A DNA stretch of 53,014 nucleotides from positions 1 to 53,014 of the forward strand of contig CAXHJY010001153.1 in NCBI GenBank assembly GCA_964016885.1. Reading direction: 5' to 3'. How positions within the stretch are numbered: the first letter of the stretch is position 1; every line of letters begins with the position of its first letter. The notes beneath the pieces are model-generated. The model was not told the DNA's origin. It ran no database searches and was given only the letters and a program-made list of their open reading frames with translations. Shown here piece after piece: positions 3,560 through 50,540 of this stretch. Position numbers and translations under genes: made by a program. This DNA comes from Eledone cirrhosa. Lineage: Eukaryota.

Positions 3560-4295
3560 CAGTCAATATTTTTAGGAACATGTCCAATGTGTCAAGCTAT
3601 GACCAGTCAGTCTTTTTAGGGACATGTCCAATGTGTCAAGCTATGACCAGTCAGTCTTTTTAGAGACATGTCCAATGTGTCAAGCTATGACCAGTCAGTC
3701 TTTTTAGGGACATGACCAATGTGTCAAGCTATGACCAGTCAGTCTTTTTAGGGACATGTCCAATGTGTCAAGCTATGACCAGTCGGTCTTTTTAGGGACA
3801 TGTCCAATGTGTCAAGCTATGACCAGTCAGTCTTTTTAGGGACATGACCAATGTGTCAAGCTATGACCAGTCAGTCTTTTTAGGGACATGTCCAATGTGT
3901 CAAGCTATGACCAGTCAGTCTTTTTAGGGACATGTCCAATGTGTCAAGCTATGACCAGTCAGTCTTTTTAGGGACATGACCAATGTGTCAAGCTATGACC
4001 AGTCAGTCTTTTTAGGGACATGTCCAATGTGTCAAGCTATGACCAGTCAGTCTTTTTAGGGACATGACCAATGTGTCAAGCTATGACCAGTCAGTCTTTT
4101 TAGGGACATGTCCAATGTGTCAAGCTATGACCAGTCAGTCTTTTTAGGGACATGTCCAATGTGTCAAGCTATGACCAGTCAGTCTTTTTAGGGACATGAC
4201 CAATGTGTCAAGCTATGACCAGTCAGTCTTTTTAAGGATATGTCCAATGTGTCAAGCTATGACCAGTCAGTCTTTTTAGGGTCATGTCCAATGTG
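3560..4295. repeat. 44-bp minisatellite, about 16.5 copies
   Basis: Unit tttttagggacatgtccaatgtgtcaagctatgaccagtcagtc; T>A variant in units 4, 7, 10, 12 and 15. Confidence 0.97.
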
Positions 4296-5811: not shown

Positions 5812-5977
5812 ACCGTATATACTCGAATATGTGACCAAGAAATCGATGGTAGAAGGAGGAGGTGGGTCATTTGGGGGGCAATATTTTGAGGATTTTCACC
5901 AATCTCAAATTCTGGATTTTTGTCCATTTCTCAGACATAAAATAGTGTGGTCAGCTTATATTTGAGTGTATGTAGTA
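5812..5977. mobile_element. Tc1/mariner-superfamily (Tc2-like) MITE
   Basis: Left end ACCGTATATACTCGAATAT and right end GCTTATATTTGAGTGTATGTAGTA resemble the TACCGTATATACTCGAGTATAAGC-type TIR. A related right end lies at ~8440-8501. Confidence 0.6.
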
Positions 5978-6416
5978 TATGCCTGTAACTCTCAGACATA
6001 AAATAGTGTGGTCAGCTTATATTTGAGTGTATGTAGTATATGCCTGTAACTCTCAGACATAAAATAGTGTGGTCAGCTTATATTTGAGTGTATGTAGTAT
6101 ATGCCTGTAACTCTCAGACATAAAATAGTGTGGTCAGCTTATATTTGAGTGTATGTAGTATATGCCTGTAACTCTCAGACATAAAATAGTGTGGTCAGCT
6201 TATATTTGAGTGTATGTAGTATATGCCTGTAACTCTCAGACATAAAATAGTGTGGTCAGCTTATATTTGAGTGTATGTAGTATATGCCTGTAACTCTCAG
6301 ACATAAAATAGTGTGGTCAGCTTATATTTGAGTGTATGTAGTATATGCCTGTAACTCTCAGACATAAAATAGTGTGGTCAGCTTATATTTGAGTGTATGT
6401 AGTATATGCCTGTAAC
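5929..6416. repeat. 61-bp minisatellite, 8 copies
   Basis: Unit ctctcagacataaaatagtgtggtcagcttatatttgagtgtatgtagtatatgcctgtaa; the copies are essentially identical. Confidence 0.97.
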
Positions 6417-14024: not shown

Positions 14025-15177
14025 TTAACTAGGACAAGACACTTGGCAGGGATCTGATCCATGTATGGATTGTAGATGGCTTTGCAAAGTGTGGTTCTGA
14101 GAGAAATTCTTGCCACATATATCACAGTGGAAAGGTTTCCTATTTGAAATATTTCGGACACTGTCAGATAGGTGGATGATTTTATGTTTCTGAAGATTGC
14201 CTCGAAGTGAAAACTCTTTGCCACAGATTTCGCAGCCAAATGGTTTCAGTCCTGTGTGTATAATTTTGTGCTTCTCCATGTTACCACGCAGAGTGAAAGA
14301 TTTGCCACACACGTTACACTGAAAGAGCTTTTCACCAGTATGTATGATCCGATGCTTCTGTAAGTTTCCACGGAGACCGAACGTTTTGCCGCAGACCTCA
14401 CATGAGAACGGCTTCTCTCCTGAGTGTAGCTTCCTGTGCTTTTGCATGTTGCCTATCAGTGCAAAAGCACGGCCGCAAATGTCGCAGTGAAAGAACTTGC
14501 TCGGGAACGGGGAAGATTTCGAAGTCGGAGCCATTGGCATCATAACCTGAGAAATTGGTGATGGTGTTGAAGACAACGATGATGATGATGGCGGTGGTAG
14601 AGCTGTGGTGGTTGATGTAGGTGGCGTTGGATGTTGAGGAGGTGGTGATGGTGCGTTATCAGCAGATGGGAGCTGCTGGGGTGCCTTGCTTGCTAAAGGA
14701 TTTGTTAAGGAATTTCCCATCGAGCCATCTCCAACTCCATTACGATTGTTGTTAGAGATGTTATGTCTCCTGTTGGTATTGCTGTTGTTGTTGCTACTGT
14801 TATTGCTGCTATTGTTGTTGTTGTTATTGTTACAGCAGCTACTTTGGGACATACGCTGGGAAAGTTGTGATAAATTGGTAGGAAGATGAGGTGAATGCAT
14901 ATGGGTCTGAGGAGGCTGGTTGCGATGGGGCCGGTGATAGTTCCTCAAAATTATCTCCTTTCGACATGATTCACAGTGCTTTTCACTGGCCGAAGGACGA
15001 CCCGGATCTTTATGGAACAAACTTTGTGCAAAAGTGTTTCCGCAGAGGGTGCAGTGCGACACTTTGCAACGGATAGCTTTATAATTCTGCATCATACTTC
15101 CCTGAGGATACATCTGCTTACCAATTGTACCGTAAATGCTACCATCATGCATGGGGGACTTATCTGGACCAAGCATC
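14025..15177 (-). CDS. C2H2 zinc-finger transcription factor, main (last) coding exon
   Basis: Five C-x2-C-x12-H-x3/4-H fingers; the first four are joined by SGEKP/TGEKL/TGLKP linkers. They are preceded by Pro/Ser-rich and poly-Asn low-complexity regions. A T-rich tract and AG acceptor (ttattag|G ATG CTT) lie at 15179-15178, so the ORF-track start at 15242 is intronic. Confidence 0.93.
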
Positions 15178-15692
15178 CTAATAAAAAAAAAAACAAAAAA
15201 AAACATGACACATACAGTCTGCTTTTTGTTAAAACTATTCAAATTTCTATGAAGTTCATTAATTTGAAGAAAATGTGAAGGAATTTGAGGACACTAATAA
15301 ATTCTTTACATTCACTCTTGATCACAAAACTGTAGGAGATGGTTAGAGTGGAATGAAACTACCAAAGTAATTATTTAACAACATTAGAGAGAGGAAAGGT
15401 AAAGTTAATCTCAGAATCTAAAAGAACAGAACTGAATATCACATTGTATCTTGTCCAGGATTCTAGTGGTTCACTGCTGTTTTTCTTGGCCATAAAAAAA
15501 TAAAAATGTTGATATATCAAATCTTACTCTTTATTCTTGACAATATTTGAATTGCTGCTTCGTAGCAAGAAAATTTGTGTATCTATTGTTATTTGGAGAT
15601 AGTAATAATGACATAATAAACCAAATTTTCTTGCTATATAAAATGGCAAAACAGTCAAGAAAGGAAAAGAGTAAGATTTGATATATTAACAC

Positions 15693-16892
15693 CACACTGT
15701 AAAGTGGTTGTGATGGCGACACAACAGAAAGCACCCAGTCCACACTGTAAAGTGGTCATGTAGGTGTCACGACAAAAAGTCCCCAGTACTCACTGCAAAG
15801 TGGTTGTGTAGGTGTCACGACAAAAAGTACCCAGTACTCACTGAAAAGTGGTCATGTAGGTGTCACAACAAAAAGCATCCAGCCTACACTGTAAAGTGGT
15901 CGTGTAGGTGTCATGACAAAAAAACACCCAGTCCACACTGTAAAGTGGTTGTGTAGGTGTCATGGCAAAAAGCATTCAGTCCATACTGTAAAGTAGTCGT
16001 GTATGTGTCACAACAAAAAACACCCAGTCCACACTGTAAAGTGGTCGTGTAGGTGTCATGACAAAAAGCATCCAGTCTACACTGTAAAGTGGTCGTTTAT
16101 GTGTCACAACAAAAAACACCTAGTCCACGCTGTAAAGTGGTTGTTAGGTGTCATAACAAAAAGCACCCAGTCCACACTGTAAAGTGGTTGTGTTGGTGTC
16201 ATGACAAAAAGCACCCAGTCCACAATGTATAGTGGTCATGTAGGTGTCATGACAAAAAGCATCCAGTCCACACTGTAAAGTGGTCGTGTATGTGTCACAA
16301 CAAAAAACACCCAGTCCACACTGTAAAGTGGTCGTGTAGGTGTCATGACAAAAAGCATCCAGTCCATACTGTAAAGTGGTCGTGACAAAAAGCACCCAGT
16401 CCACACTGTAAAGTGGTTGTGTAGGTGTCATAACAAAAAGCATCCAGTCCACACTGCAAAGTGGTTTTGTTGGTGTCATGACAAAAAGCACCCAGTCCAT
16501 ACTGTAAAGTGGTCGTGTAGGTGTCATGACAAAAAGCATCCAGTCCACACTGTAAAGTGGTCGTGTAGGTGTCATGACAAAAAGCATCCAGTCCACACTG
16601 TAAAGTGGTTGTGTAGGTGTCATGACAAAAAGCACCCAGTCCACACTGTAAAGTGGTTGTGTAGGTGTCACGACAAAAAGCATCCAGTCCACACTGTAGA
16701 GTGGTCGTGTAGGTGTCATGACAAAAAGCATCCAGTCCACACTGTAAAGTGGTCGTGTAGGTGTCATGACAAAAAGCACCCAGTCCACACTGTAAAGTGG
16801 TTGTGTAGGTGTCACGACAAAAAGCATCCAGTCCACACTGTAGAGTGGTCGTGAAGATGTCATGACAAAAAGCACCCAGTGCTCACTGTAAA
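15693..16892. repeat. 48-bp minisatellite, about 25 copies, inside a SINE-like element
   Basis: Unit cactgtaaagtggtcgtgtaggtgtcatgacaaaaagcatccagtcca. It continues into the element's 3' part (16893-17048, CCCATGCTAGCATGGAA...GATGAT tail). Confidence 0.95.
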
Positions 16893-17323
16893 TGTGGTCG
16901 GCACAAGGAAGGGTATTCAGCTGCAGAAAACAAGCCAAAATCACTTCTGTATGAGGACATAGTCCCCTGACCTGGCATTTCTGACAACAGGAACTTGTTC
17001 AACCCATGCTAGCATGGAAAAATAGACATTAAACTGATGATAATGATGGGTTTTTTTATGTCCAAGAAAAATAGCAGTGAACCAACAGTTCTAGTCCTGT
17101 TGAAATCATTTCTATAATAAAATAAAGATGCATATACTCTACTAATGTATTGAGTACCTTTTTTTAACTGTGGTCACATCCTGGTACACATCGGGAATCC
17201 ACCTATTATATATAGGGAAAGTGGACATTAAAACAACAATGATGATGATGATATCTACATGTATTATTTCAGAAATTATATATTTAGCAAATAAATATCT
17301 TTGATACTATGTCTCTCTAAAGA

Positions 17324-21151: not shown

Positions 21152-21894
21152 ATGGGTACACAAGAGATGTAGCGGAATAGCAGGCAAACTAACAGGTAGG
21201 GAGAAATACGTATGCAGTAGATGTACAGGGAAATTAGACAGTAGAAGTCGCATTGATAGACACATTTTTCAAATGCAGGCGGGTGTTATAGAAGTGGTGG
21301 ATAACTTCCGGTACCTAGGAGATCAGATTAGCATGGGAGGGGGGGTGTTCTGAGGCCATAGTATCTAGAATAAGGACGGGTTGGAAGAAGTTTAGGGAGC
21401 TGCTTCCTCTGCTGATGAAGAAGGGTTTCTCCCTGCATACGAAAGGCCGGTTATATGATGCCTGTGTGAGGAGCGCGATGCTGCATGTTAGTGAGACACG
21501 GGCAGCAACTGTAGAGGATATGCGACAGCTGGAGAGAAATGAGGCAAGCATGCTCCGTTGGATGTGCAGTGTCAATGTGCGTGAACGACCCAGCATGAAT
21601 GTGTTGAGAGGGATAGAATGTAGTGTGCGAGAGAGGAGACTGAGGTGGTATGGACATGTGATGCACATGGAGGATGACCGATGGGTGAAGAAGTGCCAGG
21701 AAATGCCAGTTGAAGGAAGACATGGTAGAGGTAGACCACGAAAAACATGGACGGAGGTGGTGAGAACAGACCTCAGATCGCTGAAGCTCACGGTGGAGAT
21801 GACAAAGGACCGTGACAAGTGGAGAGATACTGTGCTGAATAAGACCCATCCCACGCTTGCAAGCAGGGAAGAGCAGACGTAAAATGATGATGAT
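21152..21894 (+). mobile_element. 5'-truncated RTE LINE (RT C-terminus and tail)
   Basis: WVHKRCSGI...VVDNFRYLGD, a frameshift, then GWKKFRELLPLL...RRLRWYGHV...GRGRPRKTW and a (GAT)n tail. Confidence 0.92.
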
Positions 21895-35564: not shown

Positions 35565-35632
<68 letters not shown>

Positions 35633-35777
35633 AGGGTTGATGGACCCAGCATATTTATCAATGCCAGTACCGGTTATATCTCAGCGCACTCATTGGGCAA
35701 TGTAAGATACATTACCAGAGTATACACATAGTTATATGCCTCAACACAACACACGTAAAACGGGTGCCTATAAGGTT

Positions 35778-35887
35778 CCCGGACTCGAGTTTCAGCCGCA
35801 CTAATTCAGCAGTAAGGTGCACTGCACCATCTGTCTGCATATATTATGCTACAATGCACAATCGGCTTATGCGGCTTCATCAGCGGG
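35778..35887 (-). ncRNA. Type I hammerhead ribozyme, intact core, extended stem II
   Basis: Minus strand reads CCCG-CUGAUGA-AGCCGCA-[~69 nt insert]-UGCGGCU-GAAAC-UCGA-GUC^CGGG. Stem I (4 bp) and stem II (7 bp) pair perfectly; stem III is the palindrome ACUCGAGU; the cleavage triplet is GUC. Confidence 0.82.
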
Positions 35888-36217
35888 TATCGCCTAATCA
35901 ATAACCAATCGATCGACAGAATCCAAACACCGGCCCATACCGGTCATGACTGTTTGTGACAACCGACACGGTAAAGCGATTAACTGGCAACCGATAGGAC
36001 TCTATCTCTCAACTAGCCACTGATTTACATATTTTACGTGGGGACGGGAAGCTAAAAAGAATCAATCTATTTGTTCCTGTCAGAAGCCCTCAGCCAACGT
36101 GTCTCACACACAAATTATCAAGGGGTGAAAAGATGGCTATATATATGTATATATGGCTATATATATGTATATATATATATAATATATATAATATATATAA
36201 TATATATAATATATATA

Positions 36218-36626
<409 letters not shown>

Positions 36627-36710: not shown

Positions 36711-36746
36711 TCGTAACGTTTCGGACGCTTGTCCTTCATCAGAAGA
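36711..36746 (-). ncRNA. Minimal hammerhead ribozyme variant (Penelope-like type)
   Basis: UCUU-CUGAUGA-A-GGAC-AAGC-GUCC-GAAACGUU-ACGA. Palindromic AACGUU stem III; one mismatch in stem I. Confidence 0.7.
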
Positions 36747-38622: not shown

Positions 38623-39772
38623 ATGGCTAAATCTAAATGTCTTGACCTTGTCTTCTCAAAAAATGTATTAGAAAATTGTGGAGATGGGCTGCTAATTCCA
38701 CCTTCCACAGTGCTAGTGGCAGGTCAGGGTTGTATCTCCAATACAGCCACCACCACCACCACCACCACCACCACCAGCAACAACAACAGTAACAATAACA
38801 ACATCAAAACTGTCAGTCAACAATTAGACAGAGGTGGTGGAGAGGCGGTAAGAGTGTTAAGCTCGCAGTCATCTCCTCTCACCACCTCATTGAAAGACGT
38901 CGAAAATGGCGTAAAGTTTGAAAAACACGAAACCAATAACATGAAAAAGTTGAATGGCATCAACCAGAACAACATCAACAACAACAACAATGACAACAAG
39001 AACAAGAACAACAACAACAGCAACAATGATGACAACAAGAACAACAACAACAACAGCAACAATGATGACAACAACACCAACAAGAACAACTCCACAAAAA
39101 AAGAAATAATTTCATTCGCACAAACTATCCAAAAGACAGAACTGTATAAACAAATTGACATCTCTAATGCTAGATAACTACTAAGAGATGCCAATCAATA
39201 CGTAACTTTTGGGGAGAATGGCGCTTTTAGCATCACTTCTCCCCAAGAATTGCGTAGAGAAACTGTCCTGAAAACTATAGTTTTCAGGACAATCTCAAAC
39301 ACCACCAGAAAACCAGCTCAATTAACGCAAAATGAAACTGAGCTGGTTCTAAGAAACTCCATGAAGGATATTACCTTCATACAGAAGGGAAAACTCTTCG
39401 GGAGTTTATCAATAATAATCAAAGACCGATTGACGGCACAGAAATATTCTGTGTCGCCAATTGTCCCCCCCCCCTCTACACCTTTCCCCCCACATATATG
39501 AGAAAAAGGACCCCAAAAATGAGAATAACAAATATCACACCAAATGTAAACATCTGGTGGATATTATCTGGTTTCATCAATTTTGATGAAGACTCAGTGA
39601 TTTCGGTAGGAAAGTCCTCCAGGGGCATATTTAACGGTACTAGCTTAGAAGTTTTGGTCCAAATGAGGCCAGAACGAATAGCTAGAATCCCACATAAACA
39701 TTTCTGTTGAGGGTAGGCGGCCTTCATGTCACCACTGTTTAAGCAGTGGTCACCTGAGGGCTTCCTGTCCTC
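38623..39772 (+). pseudogene. L1/Tx1-like ORF1 (gag-like) pseudogene
   Basis: Long reading frame broken by a stop at 39175-39177 and by frameshifts. Thr/Asn repeat tracts. Ends in EGRRPSC(fs)HHCLSSGHLRASCP, a CCHC zinc knuckle. Confidence 0.7.
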
Positions 39773-40449
39773 AATTAACTGCGATTAAAAAAAGGCACTA
39801 CTGCCGACACCCAACACAACCACTACCACCACCACCACAACAACAACACACAAAAATAACTAAAACAAACCAAACCGCAAACACAGTCCCACCCAACCCC
39901 TCCCCACCTAAAACAACTCCAAAAACACCCACAAGAACAACAGCTCCCCAAAACGTACCCCTTCCCAATCACACAGACACCACAACGGACGAGGCCCCCT
40001 CATCATCACTCAGTTATGATGAGGGAGAACCCCTCCGCTCAAAAAGAAAAAAAAAAGACATAACACGAACAAAAAGGCAACAAACACACAACCACCAACA
40101 CAAACAACACAAACATTACAAACAAAAATCCCCCCCCCCCTCCTGAAAACAAAACAACGACAACACTCCAAACGCAAACACCTACAACAAAACGAAAACA
40201 CACACAAGAACAACAGACAAAAACCAGCACAACACAACAAGAACATTACACATACACATACATAAATACTCAAAACAAAAAATTCTAATGGAGGTCATCT
40301 CCAAAAACCCTGCGGTGAAAACCAAAGGGAAAACTTTTACAAACTGTTTGGACAAACCAAACCTAAAAATGATTAGGGGTCCCGATGGACACATATAGGT
40401 CCCTAAAAGAAAACTTCGATAAGGACGTGGAGAATTCATGCGTCAAACC

Positions 40450-40912
40450 CATGAACCGTTCGTGAGGCGAGCCTTCCCGCGACTCGTCTCACTGACCGAG
40501 CTGCAGTCCAGGGTCAAGCAAAGACCGAGGAAAATGGGCGACTGGCACATCGAATGTGCTCAGGCGCTCACAGTCCTCTGGCAAACGGACCCAGCGATCA
40601 ATGAAGACTCCACCTCATCATTCTATAGAGGGCTAGTCTGCAGCAAGTGCGACGACACTCTCGGAGAAACTCTAGGCGTAGAGGAAGACGAACTGGCCAG
40701 TCTATTCGGTAAGACATTCCACCCGGGACCGATGGACAACTTCCAAAAGTCCCTGGCCTGGCAGCGCTACTGAGGAGCTCTACCCGTTCGAGGCAAGCTC
40801 TACAGACACGGGCGTCCGGGAAGGGACCCCTCGAAAAAGATCTGTCCGAGATGCGTGCGGGACGAGGAAACCGTCGCGCACGCATTCGAACACTGCCCGG
40901 GCGTTACCGGCC
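40450..40912 (+). pseudogene. L1/Tx1-like ORF2 C-terminal fragment
   Basis: KSLAWQRY*GALPVRGKLYRH...ICPRCVRDEETVAHAFEHCP, a zf-RVT-type C-x2-C...ETxxH...C motif. Confidence 0.8.
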
Positions 40913-43288: not shown

Positions 43289-43324
43289 TCGTAACGTTTC
43301 GGACACTAGTCCTTCATCAGAAGA
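43289..43324 (-). ncRNA. Minimal hammerhead ribozyme variant, second copy
   Basis: UCUU-CUGAUGA-A-GGAC-UAGU-GUCC-GAAACGUU-ACGA. Differs from the 36711 copy only in the stem II loop. Confidence 0.7.
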
Positions 43325-45071: not shown

Positions 45072-45155
45072 GGCCGCTACTAAACCTAATGGTATTTCCG
45101 CTCCTCAACAGTGTAGAGTGGTTAGGGCAGACCGTAGTGAAGATGAGGAGCAAGG
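45072..45155 (+). CDS. Putative internal coding exon of an unidentified gene (PLLNLMVFPLLNSVEWLGQTVVKMRSK)
   Basis: Pyrimidine tract plus ccag| acceptor; 84 nt; open frame in phase 1-1; donor AAGG|gtagtt. Phase-compatible with the 50541 exon. Confidence 0.35.
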
Positions 45156-46257
45156 GTAGTTTTTCTGTGTGCATGGGTATTTTTTCTGTGTGAAATGGTA
45201 TTTTTTCTGTGTGCAAGAGTAGTTTTTCTGTGTGCAAGGGTAGTTTTTCTGTGTGCAAGGGTATTTTTTCTGTGTGCAAGAGTAGTTTTTCTGTGTGCAA
45301 GGGTATTTTTTCTGTGTGCAAGAGTAGTTTTTCTGTGTGCAAGGGTAGTTTTTCTGTGTGCAAGGGTATTTTTTCTGTGTACAAGAGTAGTTTTTCTGTG
45401 TGCAAGGGTAGTTTTTCTGTGTGCAAGGGTATTTTTTCTGTGTGCAAGAGTAGTTTTTCTGTGTGCAAGGGTATTTTTTCTGTGTACAAGGGTATTTTTT
45501 CTGTGTGCAAGAGTAGTTTTTCTGTGTGCAAGGGTATTTTTTCTGTGTGCAAGAGTATTTTTTCTGTGTGCAAGGGTATTTTTTCTGTGTACAAGGGTAT
45601 TTTTTCTGTGTGCAAGGGTATTTTTTCTGTGTGCAAGAGTAGTTTTTCTGTGTGCAAGGGTATTTTTTCTGTGTGCAAGAGTATTTTTTCTGTGTGCAAG
45701 GGTATTTTTTCTGTGTACAAGGGTATTTTTTCTGTGTGCAAGGGTATTTTTTCTGTGTACAAGGGTATTTTTTCTGTGTACAAGGGTATTTTTTCTGTGT
45801 GCAAGGGTATTTTTTCTGTGTACAAGGGTATTTTTTCTGTGTGCAAGGGTATTTTTTCTGTGTACAAGGGTATTTTTTCTGTGTACAAGGGTATTTTTTC
45901 TGTGTACAAGGGTATTTTTTCTGTGTGCAAGGGTATTTTTTCTGTGTACAAGGGTATTTTTTCTGTGTAAGGGTACTTTTTCTGTGTACAAGAGTATTTT
46001 TTCTGTGTGCAAGGGTATTTTTTCTGTGTGCAAGAGTATTTTTTCTGTGTGAAAGTGTATTTTTTCTGTGTGTAAGGGTATTTTTTCTGTGTGCAAGGGT
46101 ATTTTTTCTGTGTGCAAGGGTATTTTTTCTGTGTGCAAGAGTATTTTTTCTGTGTGAAAGTGTATTTTTTCTGTGTGTAAGGGTATTTTTTCTGTGTGCA
46201 AGGGTATTTTTTCTGTGTGCAAGGGTATTTTTTCTGTGTGCAAGGGTATTTTTTCTG
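45150..46257. repeat. 21-bp minisatellite, about 52 copies
   Basis: Unit aagggtattttttctgtgtgc with recurring variants. Confidence 0.97.
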
Positions 46258-49736: not shown

Positions 49737-50487
49737 CTGAGTGAAGGAAGGTATGGTTGAGTGAAGGAAAGTGTGGTTGAGTGAAGGGAAGGGGAGATGA
49801 GTGAAGGAAAGGGGAGTCGAGTGAAGGGAAGTGAGGTTGAGTGAAGGAAGGTGTGGTTGAGTGAAGGAAAGTGTGGTTGAGTGAAGGGAAGTGTGGTTGA
49901 GTGAAGGACGGTATGGTTGAGTGAAGGAAGGTATAGATGAGTGAGGGAAGGTATGGTTGAGTGAAGGAAGGTATGGTTGAGTGAAGGAAAGGGGAGATGA
50001 GTGAAGGAAAGGGGAGTCGAGTTGAGTGAAGGAAGGTGTGGTTGAGTGAAGGGATGTGTGGTTGAGTGAAGGAAAATGAGGTTGAGTGAAGGGAAGTGTG
50101 GTTGAATGAAGGAAAGTGGGATTGAGTGAAGGGAAGTTTGGTTGAGTGAAGAGAAGTGTGGTTGAGTGAATGAAAGTGTGGTTGAGTGAAGGGAAGTGTG
50201 GTTGAGTGAAGGAAAGTGTGGTTGAGTGAAGAGAAGTGTGGTTGAGTGAAGGAAAGTGAGGTTGAGTGAAGGAAAGTGTGGTTGAATGAAGGAAAGTGTG
50301 GTTGAGTGAAGGAAAGTGTGGTTGAGTGAAGGAAAGGGGAGATGAGTGAAGGAAAGGGGAGTCGAGTAAAGGAAAGTGTGGTTGAGTGAAAGGAAGTGTG
50401 GTTGAGTGAAGGAAAGTGGAGTGTAGTGAAGGAAAGTGTGGTTGAGTTAAGGAAAGTGGAGTCTAGTGAAGGAAAGTGTAGTTGAGT
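49737..50487. repeat. 20-bp purine-rich minisatellite
   Basis: Unit gagtgaaggaaagtgtggtt with 5-bp sub-periodicity. Confidence 0.95.
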
Positions 50488-50540
50488 GTGGCAGTGAAGA
50501 TACATAAGCCCAAACACTATCAGTATTTTAAATATTTCAG

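Follow-up and report, generated by a model that had tools for sequence, protein, structure and literature searches.

Type I hammerhead ribozymes are known from metazoan Penelope-like elements (PLEs), in which, according to the accessible parts of the literature on which all the comparisons below are based, helix I has 4–5 bp and helix II 7–8 bp, an extra base follows A9, helix III is short and palindromic, as in hammerheads that work as dimers, and the element copies are mostly solitary and truncated (Cervera and De la Pena 2014, PMC4209133). In animal non-LTR retrozymes (LTR, long terminal repeat), noncoding head-to-tail units each contain one type I hammerhead, the GC content is low, the unit is predicted to form a highly self-paired circle, and PLEs occur in the same genome (PMC7229834; bioRxiv 10.64898/2026.07.22.740005). 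A third point of comparison is provided by the pseudoknotted hammerheads, in which a Watson–Crick pseudoknot is predicted to keep stems I and II parallel; these occur in all three hammerhead types, account for approximately 40% of motifs, and can tolerate a 10.1–11.1 mismatch (Perreault et al. 2011, PMC3088659). Here, we describe an abundant long-armed structural variant within a known kind of element (Penelope-dependent, retrozyme-like), based on a 53,014-nt stretch of DNA from Eledone cirrhosa (Eukaryota; NCBI GenBank assembly GCA_964016885.1, contig CAXHJY010001153.1, positions 1 to 53,014, forward strand), hereafter called the window. The hammerhead motif lies on the minus strand at 35778–35887. 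It shares the helix lengths, the extra base after A9, and the short palindromic helix III of the PLE hammerheads described in PMC4209133. Unlike in those hammerheads, helix II does not end in a small loop but runs, in this and related families, into a 40–95-nt extension (an internal loop and a hairpin, or a three-way junction); an extra base also precedes G12, a leader–junction pseudoknot is predicted in some families, and there is no linked open reading frame (ORF). In the literature searched, no type I hammerhead with a 40–95-nt or branched stem II was found, although a precedent is possible in studies of PLE variants or in supplements; the long helices II reported for type I hammerheads in the accessible sources comprise 6–8 bp.

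The motif elements listed in the initial annotation, its canonical core, and its cut position were all confirmed in the sequence. Read 5' to 3' on the minus strand, the motif begins with the 5' strand of stem I (CCCG, 35884–35887; 96.8% of cells paired in families A and B, described below) and core box C3–A9 (CUGAUGA, 35877–35883). The 5' strand of stem II (35869–35876), which consists of one A followed by seven paired bases, leads through a junction linker (AAGCCG, 35863–35868) into two predicted hairpins (35843–35862 and 35804–35840) and back into the 3' strand of stem II (35794–35801). The stem II strands as first read are AGCCGCA (35876–35870) and UGCGGCU (35800–35794), with 69 nt between them, and the two core boxes, CUGAUGA and GAAA, are separated by 83 nt. 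The GAAA box and the palindromic stem III occupy 35783–35793, with GAAAC at 35793–35789 followed by UCGA and then by GUC, the last base of which is 35782. The scissile bond, GUC^C, is predicted from established hammerhead chemistry to lie between 35782 and 35781 (GUU precedes it in family B), and the 3' strand of stem I (CGGG, 35778–35781) completes the motif. The CUGANGA, GAAA, and UH core, the three helices, and the open stem I place the motif in type I. Stem III is a perfect 8-nt palindrome, ACUCGAGU, at 35790–35783, with a predicted 8-bp self-duplex of −10.7 kcal/mol; the initial reading of the motif as a type I hammerhead of the kind found in Penelope elements and retrozymes, with a palindrome in stem III, was supported.

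When the motif was compared with the 45-position Rfam model Hammerhead_1 (RF00163), all the core positions aligned. Because of the insert in stem II, the score was 16.1 bits (E value 0.7), below the gathering cut-off of 34, so a standard Rfam scan misses the motif; the suggestion that short-loop searches would overlook it held for this cut-off. In an Rfam scan of the whole window, the best 150 of the 221 rows included no hammerhead and consisted of microsatellite-driven matches of the microRNA type. A pattern containing both core halves had 357 matches in the 3.0-Gb genome and none in a backwards control, so the window motif is not attributable to chance. In 1.43 Mb of loci, searched on both strands, 86 distinct matches to a strict type I descriptor were obtained, and the same loci reversed gave none; the way in which the loci were chosen had raised their share of family A and other repeats. 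Patterns with long spacers between the core boxes were also far more frequent than in backwards controls, with 15,720 matches against 570 for spacers of 44–64 nt and 14,801 against 692 for spacers of 75–105 nt, a 21- to 28-fold enrichment genome-wide; with the same stem III pattern as for 75–105 nt, spacers of 8–30 nt gave 10,481 matches against 1,032. These counts are pattern matches rather than curated ribozymes, and unrelated repeats are also among them. By this measure, type I hammerheads with a long stem II are abundant in the genome, in many families and about 30,000 motifs. Furthermore, in a group formed by families D and E (14 members), 8 of the 23 pairs were changed on both sides, and the covariation score was reached by none of 500 shuffles, a result inflated by the relatedness of the members. 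A chance hammerhead-like pattern in a repeat without RNA function would account for the subthreshold Rfam score and for the fold z-score of only −1.8 in the 126-nt motif region, but it is already largely refuted by the genome-wide enrichment, the strict matches, and the covariation in the D/E group, and we consider it very improbable.

The initial annotation proposed that the insert forms a single long hairpin by pairing GUGCAUUGUA with UGCAGUGCAC. This pairing could form, but the folding predictions differ from it: in both minimum-free-energy and consensus folds, the 69-nt insert formed two hairpins on a three-way junction, giving a Y shape. The helices of this branched fold were 90.9–96.9% paired across the copies of families A and B, with the highest value for the hairpin at 35843–35862; the hairpin at 35804–35840 is weakened in the window copy by a rare substitution at 35806. 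The single hairpin was rejected because it was 84.9% paired, showed no double changes, and was disrupted by G-to-A changes in family B, and the last pair of GUGCAUUGUA/UGCAGUGCAC was present only in the window copy (1 of 16). Two further origins of the arm were considered. A duplication with an internal copy forming a rival short stem II was not supported, as the pairing probability of the long-range stem II was approximately 1.0 (computed for the window copy and for family A copies with a C–G or an A–U pair). A search for a short-armed ancestor with the same stem III gave three matches; L061 resembles a family B copy that has undergone deletion, and the remaining two are unrelated.

Stems I and II had been described as perfectly paired. 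This is true of the window copy, but a perfect stem II is not a family trait, since the A–U pair that closes it is private to a few copies (U in 5 of the 357 pattern matches). At 35794, where A is the family norm, the U of the window copy is rare and private: in 115 aligned family A copies, the column opposite the A at the base of stem II contained A in 105, C in 7, G in 2, and U in 1, and at position 35794 itself the letters other than that of the window made up about 99% of the contig depth (three public runs, one sample). Family A thus normally has A·A at the base of stem II, with A·C instead in family B and in a subfamily that appears to be older, and a G–C pair follows. If the first A is read as the known extra base after A9, the G–C pair is kept and one more base stands before G12. 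Similar 1×1 mismatches at this position recur in other families of the genome, both long- and short-armed, so the mismatch is a class trait rather than a sign of decay.

The ORF-less island flanked on both sides by (TA)n, as originally described, was confirmed; it is not a stand-alone locus, however, but one 5'-truncated copy among hundreds to thousands of a repeat family, which we call family A. The 508-bp island (35630–36137, minus strand) corresponds to unit positions of approximately 331–844, and its fixed 3' end runs into a (TA)n tract at 35568–35629, the likely target site, while a second tract at 36138–36408 adjoins the truncated 5' junction, which is spanned by a 20-bp tandem duplication at 36131–36170. 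Genome-wide, family A had 2,819 candidates, and the 40 that were scored were 95–96% identical, the window itself aside. Its unit of approximately 840 bp, which has no ORF, was defined through partial head-to-tail tandems (L009, L017, L026, L028, L039, L051, L052, and L056), two of which (L017 and L026) contain two hammerheads each, 839–840 nt apart. The longest stop-to-stop frame in a natural family A tandem was 87 codons. The same 3' end was reached by 130 of 136 alignments from 115 family A loci, and the 5' ends were scattered. Of 119 3' flanks, 99 were (TA)n, 11 led into another unit, and 9 had other sequence; at the 5' flank, (TA)n was found in 79 of 118 cases, both being raw TA counts. 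Family A has no poly(A) tail, and the flanks viewed showed no discernible target-site duplication. A 91-nt intron-like segment, GTAAGT...AAG with a branch-like TACTAAT, was found in all 21 of the family A copies that span it, and its donor was also found in one family B copy. The predicted cut lies 152 nt from the 3' end of the unit. Family A copies differ from the column majority at approximately 1.9% of nonpolymorphic sites, and because of this low divergence the family is young, as judged from its sequences. Because the loci were picked by similarity or by the hammerhead pattern, the invariance of the core within family A would be circular as evidence and was not used as such. The window copy itself is likely a dead insertion because it has neither the 5' third of the unit nor a tandem partner.

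Family A is likely a non-autonomous PLE or a retrozyme, since its 3' end is fixed, it targets (TA)n, it occurs in partial tandems, and it has a predicted retained intron. PLEs as described in the accessible parts of PMC8557442 and PMC4209133 share the fixed 3' end, the variation in 5' truncation, the partial tandems, which resemble pseudo-long terminal repeats (pLTRs), and the bias toward (TA)n, and, as in PMC4209133, the family A copies are mostly solitary and truncated. The noncoding tandem units with one type I hammerhead each are a retrozyme feature, and family A also resembles the animal non-LTR retrozymes in its low GC content (42%), predicted highly self-paired circle, and coexistence with PLEs. 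The 840-bp unit fits the 51–972-bp range given in bioRxiv 10.64898/2026.07.22.740005 but exceeds the circles of 170–400 nt demonstrated experimentally in those sources, and the family A circle is a folding prediction. Unlike the retrozymes as described there, family A occurs mostly as dispersed 5'-truncated monomers in (TA)n, with an intron-like segment and a long branched helix II. As a possible autonomous partner, the genome contains 10,597 GIY-YIG candidates, from which 150 scored matches were obtained, and ORFs of up to approximately 1,000 codons combining a reverse transcriptase (RT) with a C-terminal GIY-YIG domain likewise end in (TA)n. Many of these elements have a cysteine linker and, going by the PLE descriptions just cited, would be Neptune- or Nematis-like. 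Some of the RT–GIY-YIG elements sampled showed, by eye, short-armed hammerhead variants near their 3' ends. At locus L169 (also L108 at 1818, L031, L199, and L202), a tandem 3' end lies upstream of a near-intact, Penelope-like RT–GIY-YIG ORF of 938 codons; in the L169 family and in other repeats, hammerheads with a U3–A8 core variant were observed.

A second family, B (2,253 candidates), is 72–75% identical to family A in the longer alignments and retains the core, the palindromic stem III, and both hairpins, with a G–C/A–U swap in stem II and GUU at the cut. The check for paralogs proposed at the outset therefore had a positive outcome: the paralogs retain the core and the stems, and one stem II pair is compensatory between families A and B. 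Within family A (n = 115), one stem II pair was C–G in 65 copies, C·U in 29, A–U in 9, and A·G in 2. With family B as the outgroup, these variants would fit a loss followed by a later compensation (association p = 0.0017); the compensation was a single event among related copies, and the mismatch was evidently tolerated. Family C (2,608 candidates; L010 at 2135 and 2830 on the plus strand, L142 at 2881, and L005 at 2126) has a 695-bp tandem unit and a 95-nt branched stem II. It has no sequence similarity to family A or B but has the same predicted junction, and its first hairpin covaries among relatives. Other long-armed families were also observed. A group at L204–L233, which includes family D, has a stem II of 44–64 nt and tandem periods of approximately 480–570 bp, and further families with 75–95-nt spacers occur at L237, L248, L236, L238, L239–L242, and L247; those at L237 and L248 are predicted to form long unbranched hairpins without the leader pseudoknot. 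Short-armed hammerheads are often arranged as closely spaced inverted pairs (for example, G000 C1, 17640174–17640235), an arrangement that inverted Penelope copies truncated at the 5' end would be expected to give.

In several families, the bases directly 5' of stem I are complementary to the strand that immediately follows stem II. The potential pseudoknot comprises 3 bp in family A, 4 bp in B, 5–6 bp in C, 5–7 bp in D, E, F, H, I, and J, and 2–3 bp in G and K. In the window copy, the putative partners are the leader GGC at 35892–35894 and the GCC at 35866–35864 within the junction linker. Among nine representatives, the cognate complementary run averaged 4.9 compared with 3.5 (p = 5e-4; a post hoc comparison on the data that had suggested the pairing), and in new loci with 44–64-nt spacers it was 5.2 compared with 4.3 (p = 0.003), with flanking controls at 3.0. 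From these sequence comparisons, a leader–junction pseudoknot is well supported as a prediction in one group, plausible in families B and C, and weak in family A. A general pseudoknot in the 75–105-nt class was not supported, as the families at L237, L238, and L248 lacked it in a comparison of 5 representatives. Like the pseudoknot of Perreault et al. (PMC3088659), the predicted Watson–Crick pairing would keep stems I and II parallel. In the accessible part of that account, the pairing is with a terminal loop or a tail, whereas here it involves an internal strand of the junction, located 6–9 bp into stem II and followed by a large domain.

Signs of cleavage were sought in the truncation junctions of the copies, with loci taken from among the first 100 listed of 128 and 154 matches and only junctions with ATATA upstream considered; one duplicate family D locus and one family A junction with an inverted partner were omitted. 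Truncated copies of family D pile up at the predicted cut, 9 of 37 starting at position 0 or −1 (uniform p = 5e-4); in seven of the nine, which start at −1, one T is assignable to either side. When natural cut-to-cut units were folded as predicted circles, family A had z-scores of −4.9 and −5.0 and five other families −2.0 to −4.5, with ORF controls at −2.0 and −2.3 (15–25 shuffles). The long-armed hammerheads likely self-cleave in their source elements, as far as can be judged from sequence. The explanation that we favor as probable is that the window locus is a 5'-truncated copy of what is likely a non-autonomous PLE, whose long-armed hammerhead likely self-cleaved as a dimer, perhaps aided by a protein, in transcripts of tandem source copies. 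Under this explanation, tandem source copies would be transcribed across more than one unit, and two hammerheads, paired via their palindromic stems III, would cleave at GUC to release a unit of approximately 840 nt that would circularize. An autonomous Penelope-like RT/GIY-YIG protein would nick (TA)n DNA, and the uncut or circular RNA would be copied from a fixed internal start, which would yield the constant 3' end, the variable 5' truncation, and the inserts longer than one unit. In the ribozyme itself, the additional 69 nt are predicted to form the three-way junction atop the 7-bp stem II, and the short Watson–Crick pseudoknot between junction and leader would stand in for the usual contact between loops 1 and 2.

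Several results weigh against this explanation. Covariation within families A and B alone was not significant for the branched insert (2 pairs; 49 of 500 shuffles), nor was it for the single hairpin. In the pseudoknot comparison, the first set of new loci consisted mostly of kin of the families that had suggested the pairing, the 75–105-nt set (30 loci, 14 of which passed the stem filter and supplied 5 representatives) did not support it (3.6 compared with 3.05, p = 0.19), and the family A pairing has only 3 bp. In terms of the connection to autonomous PLEs, family A and B units shared no DNA with 40 GIY-YIG loci sampled among the 10,597 candidates, a small sample and thus a weak negative, and PLE protein matches were found in 10 of 223 loci, with a (TA)n run intervening in all four that have a family A hammerhead downstream. 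The missing sequence link among the sampled loci, together with presumed LINE-like (long interspersed nuclear element-like) RT fragments elsewhere in the window (such as the ORF at 21319–21882), would suit a repeat derived from a satellite or resembling a short interspersed nuclear element, moved by a non-Penelope RT, in which the hammerhead is incidental. We regard this as unlikely, since the partial tandems, (TA)n targeting, intron-like segment, and hammerhead near the 3' end constitute PLE anatomy, and there is neither a poly(A) tail nor, in the flanks viewed, a discernible target-site duplication.

The remaining adverse results concern the activity of the ribozyme. None of 31 family A truncation junctions lay at the predicted cut. 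When the flanks were included in the folding, the active fold lay 3.8–10.9 kcal/mol above the ensemble and stem I was outcompeted, in families A and B partly by a second CCCG that lies downstream of the cut (35761–35764 in the window), is also present in family B, and is predicted to form a competing hairpin of −7.9 kcal/mol with the 3' strand of stem I; the predicted circular folds of family A likewise did not contain stem I. According to these folding models, the competition for stem I would fit cleavage during transcription or with the help of a protein and would equally fit a weak or vestigial ribozyme. The stem II subfamily of family A with the C·U mismatch was nonetheless amplified (29 of 115). 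In the accessible part of PMC11167929, the ribozyme of an Anolis PLE was dispensable for insertion in vitro, and it required the protein of the element. An element of the same class in which the hammerhead of family A would be a vestige or have almost no activity, which spreads from uncut tandem transcripts and retains the arm for binding of the PLE protein, RNA stability, or a similar role, would be consistent with these junctions, with the competing hairpin, with that dispensability, and with the A·A at the stem II base, the amplified C·U subfamily, and the shortening of the pseudoknot from 4 bp in family B to 3 bp in family A; metazoan PLE hammerheads are also described as cleaving poorly in vitro in PMC4209133, as far as its accessible part extends. 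We consider such a loss of function possible but doubtful, given that the core, the GUH site, and the palindrome have been preserved over 25–28% divergence between families A and B, that the 1×1 mismatch at the stem II base is common in other long- and short-armed families, and that a circular template would produce no pile-up at the cut.

A broader proposal can be entertained tentatively, namely, that the long-armed motifs would form a distinct type I subclass with a 40–95-nt hairpin or junction domain on stem II docked by the leader pseudoknot, comprising tens of thousands of motifs that would process many families of 460–840-nt Penelope-dependent circular RNAs, the domain perhaps acting as a handle for the Penelope protein. 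If this were so, short-loop searches would have overlooked a whole layer of ribozymes in animal genomes. Surveys of animal genomes for ribozymes rely on short-loop descriptors or on the 45-position Rfam model. In this genome, under the same stem III pattern, motifs with 75–105-nt spacers outnumber those with 8–30-nt spacers, so many animal hammerheads may be absent from current counts. The long-armed families also provide natural, covarying test cases for the role of hammerheads in Penelope transposition and bear on how hammerheads work without the canonical loop–loop contacts, and the pile-up in family D suggests that in vivo cleavage may be read from genome sequence alone. The window locus that was originally flagged is, by itself, likely an ordinary dead copy.

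Other features were also observed in the window. Another repeat, which has a short-armed hammerhead-like core, is present in two copies on the minus strand at 36718–36742 and 43296–43320; both cores have an extra A after A9, a 4-bp stem II, and a short palindrome after GAAA, and a (TA)n run follows each copy approximately 90–115 bp downstream. A relative in L055 has an intact stem I, which is imperfect in the two window copies. An open frame at 14025–15293 (minus strand), which encodes several C2H2 zinc fingers after a low-complexity region, is likely an exon of a host gene. Fragments at 21319–21882 (plus strand), 36420–36516, and 39178–40903 (plus strand) resemble what we take to be LINE-type retrotransposon proteins. 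Minisatellite arrays were located at 3560–4295 (period 44 bp), 5929–6416 (61 bp), 15692–16900 (48 bp), 45150–46257 (21 bp), and 49738–50488 (20 bp).
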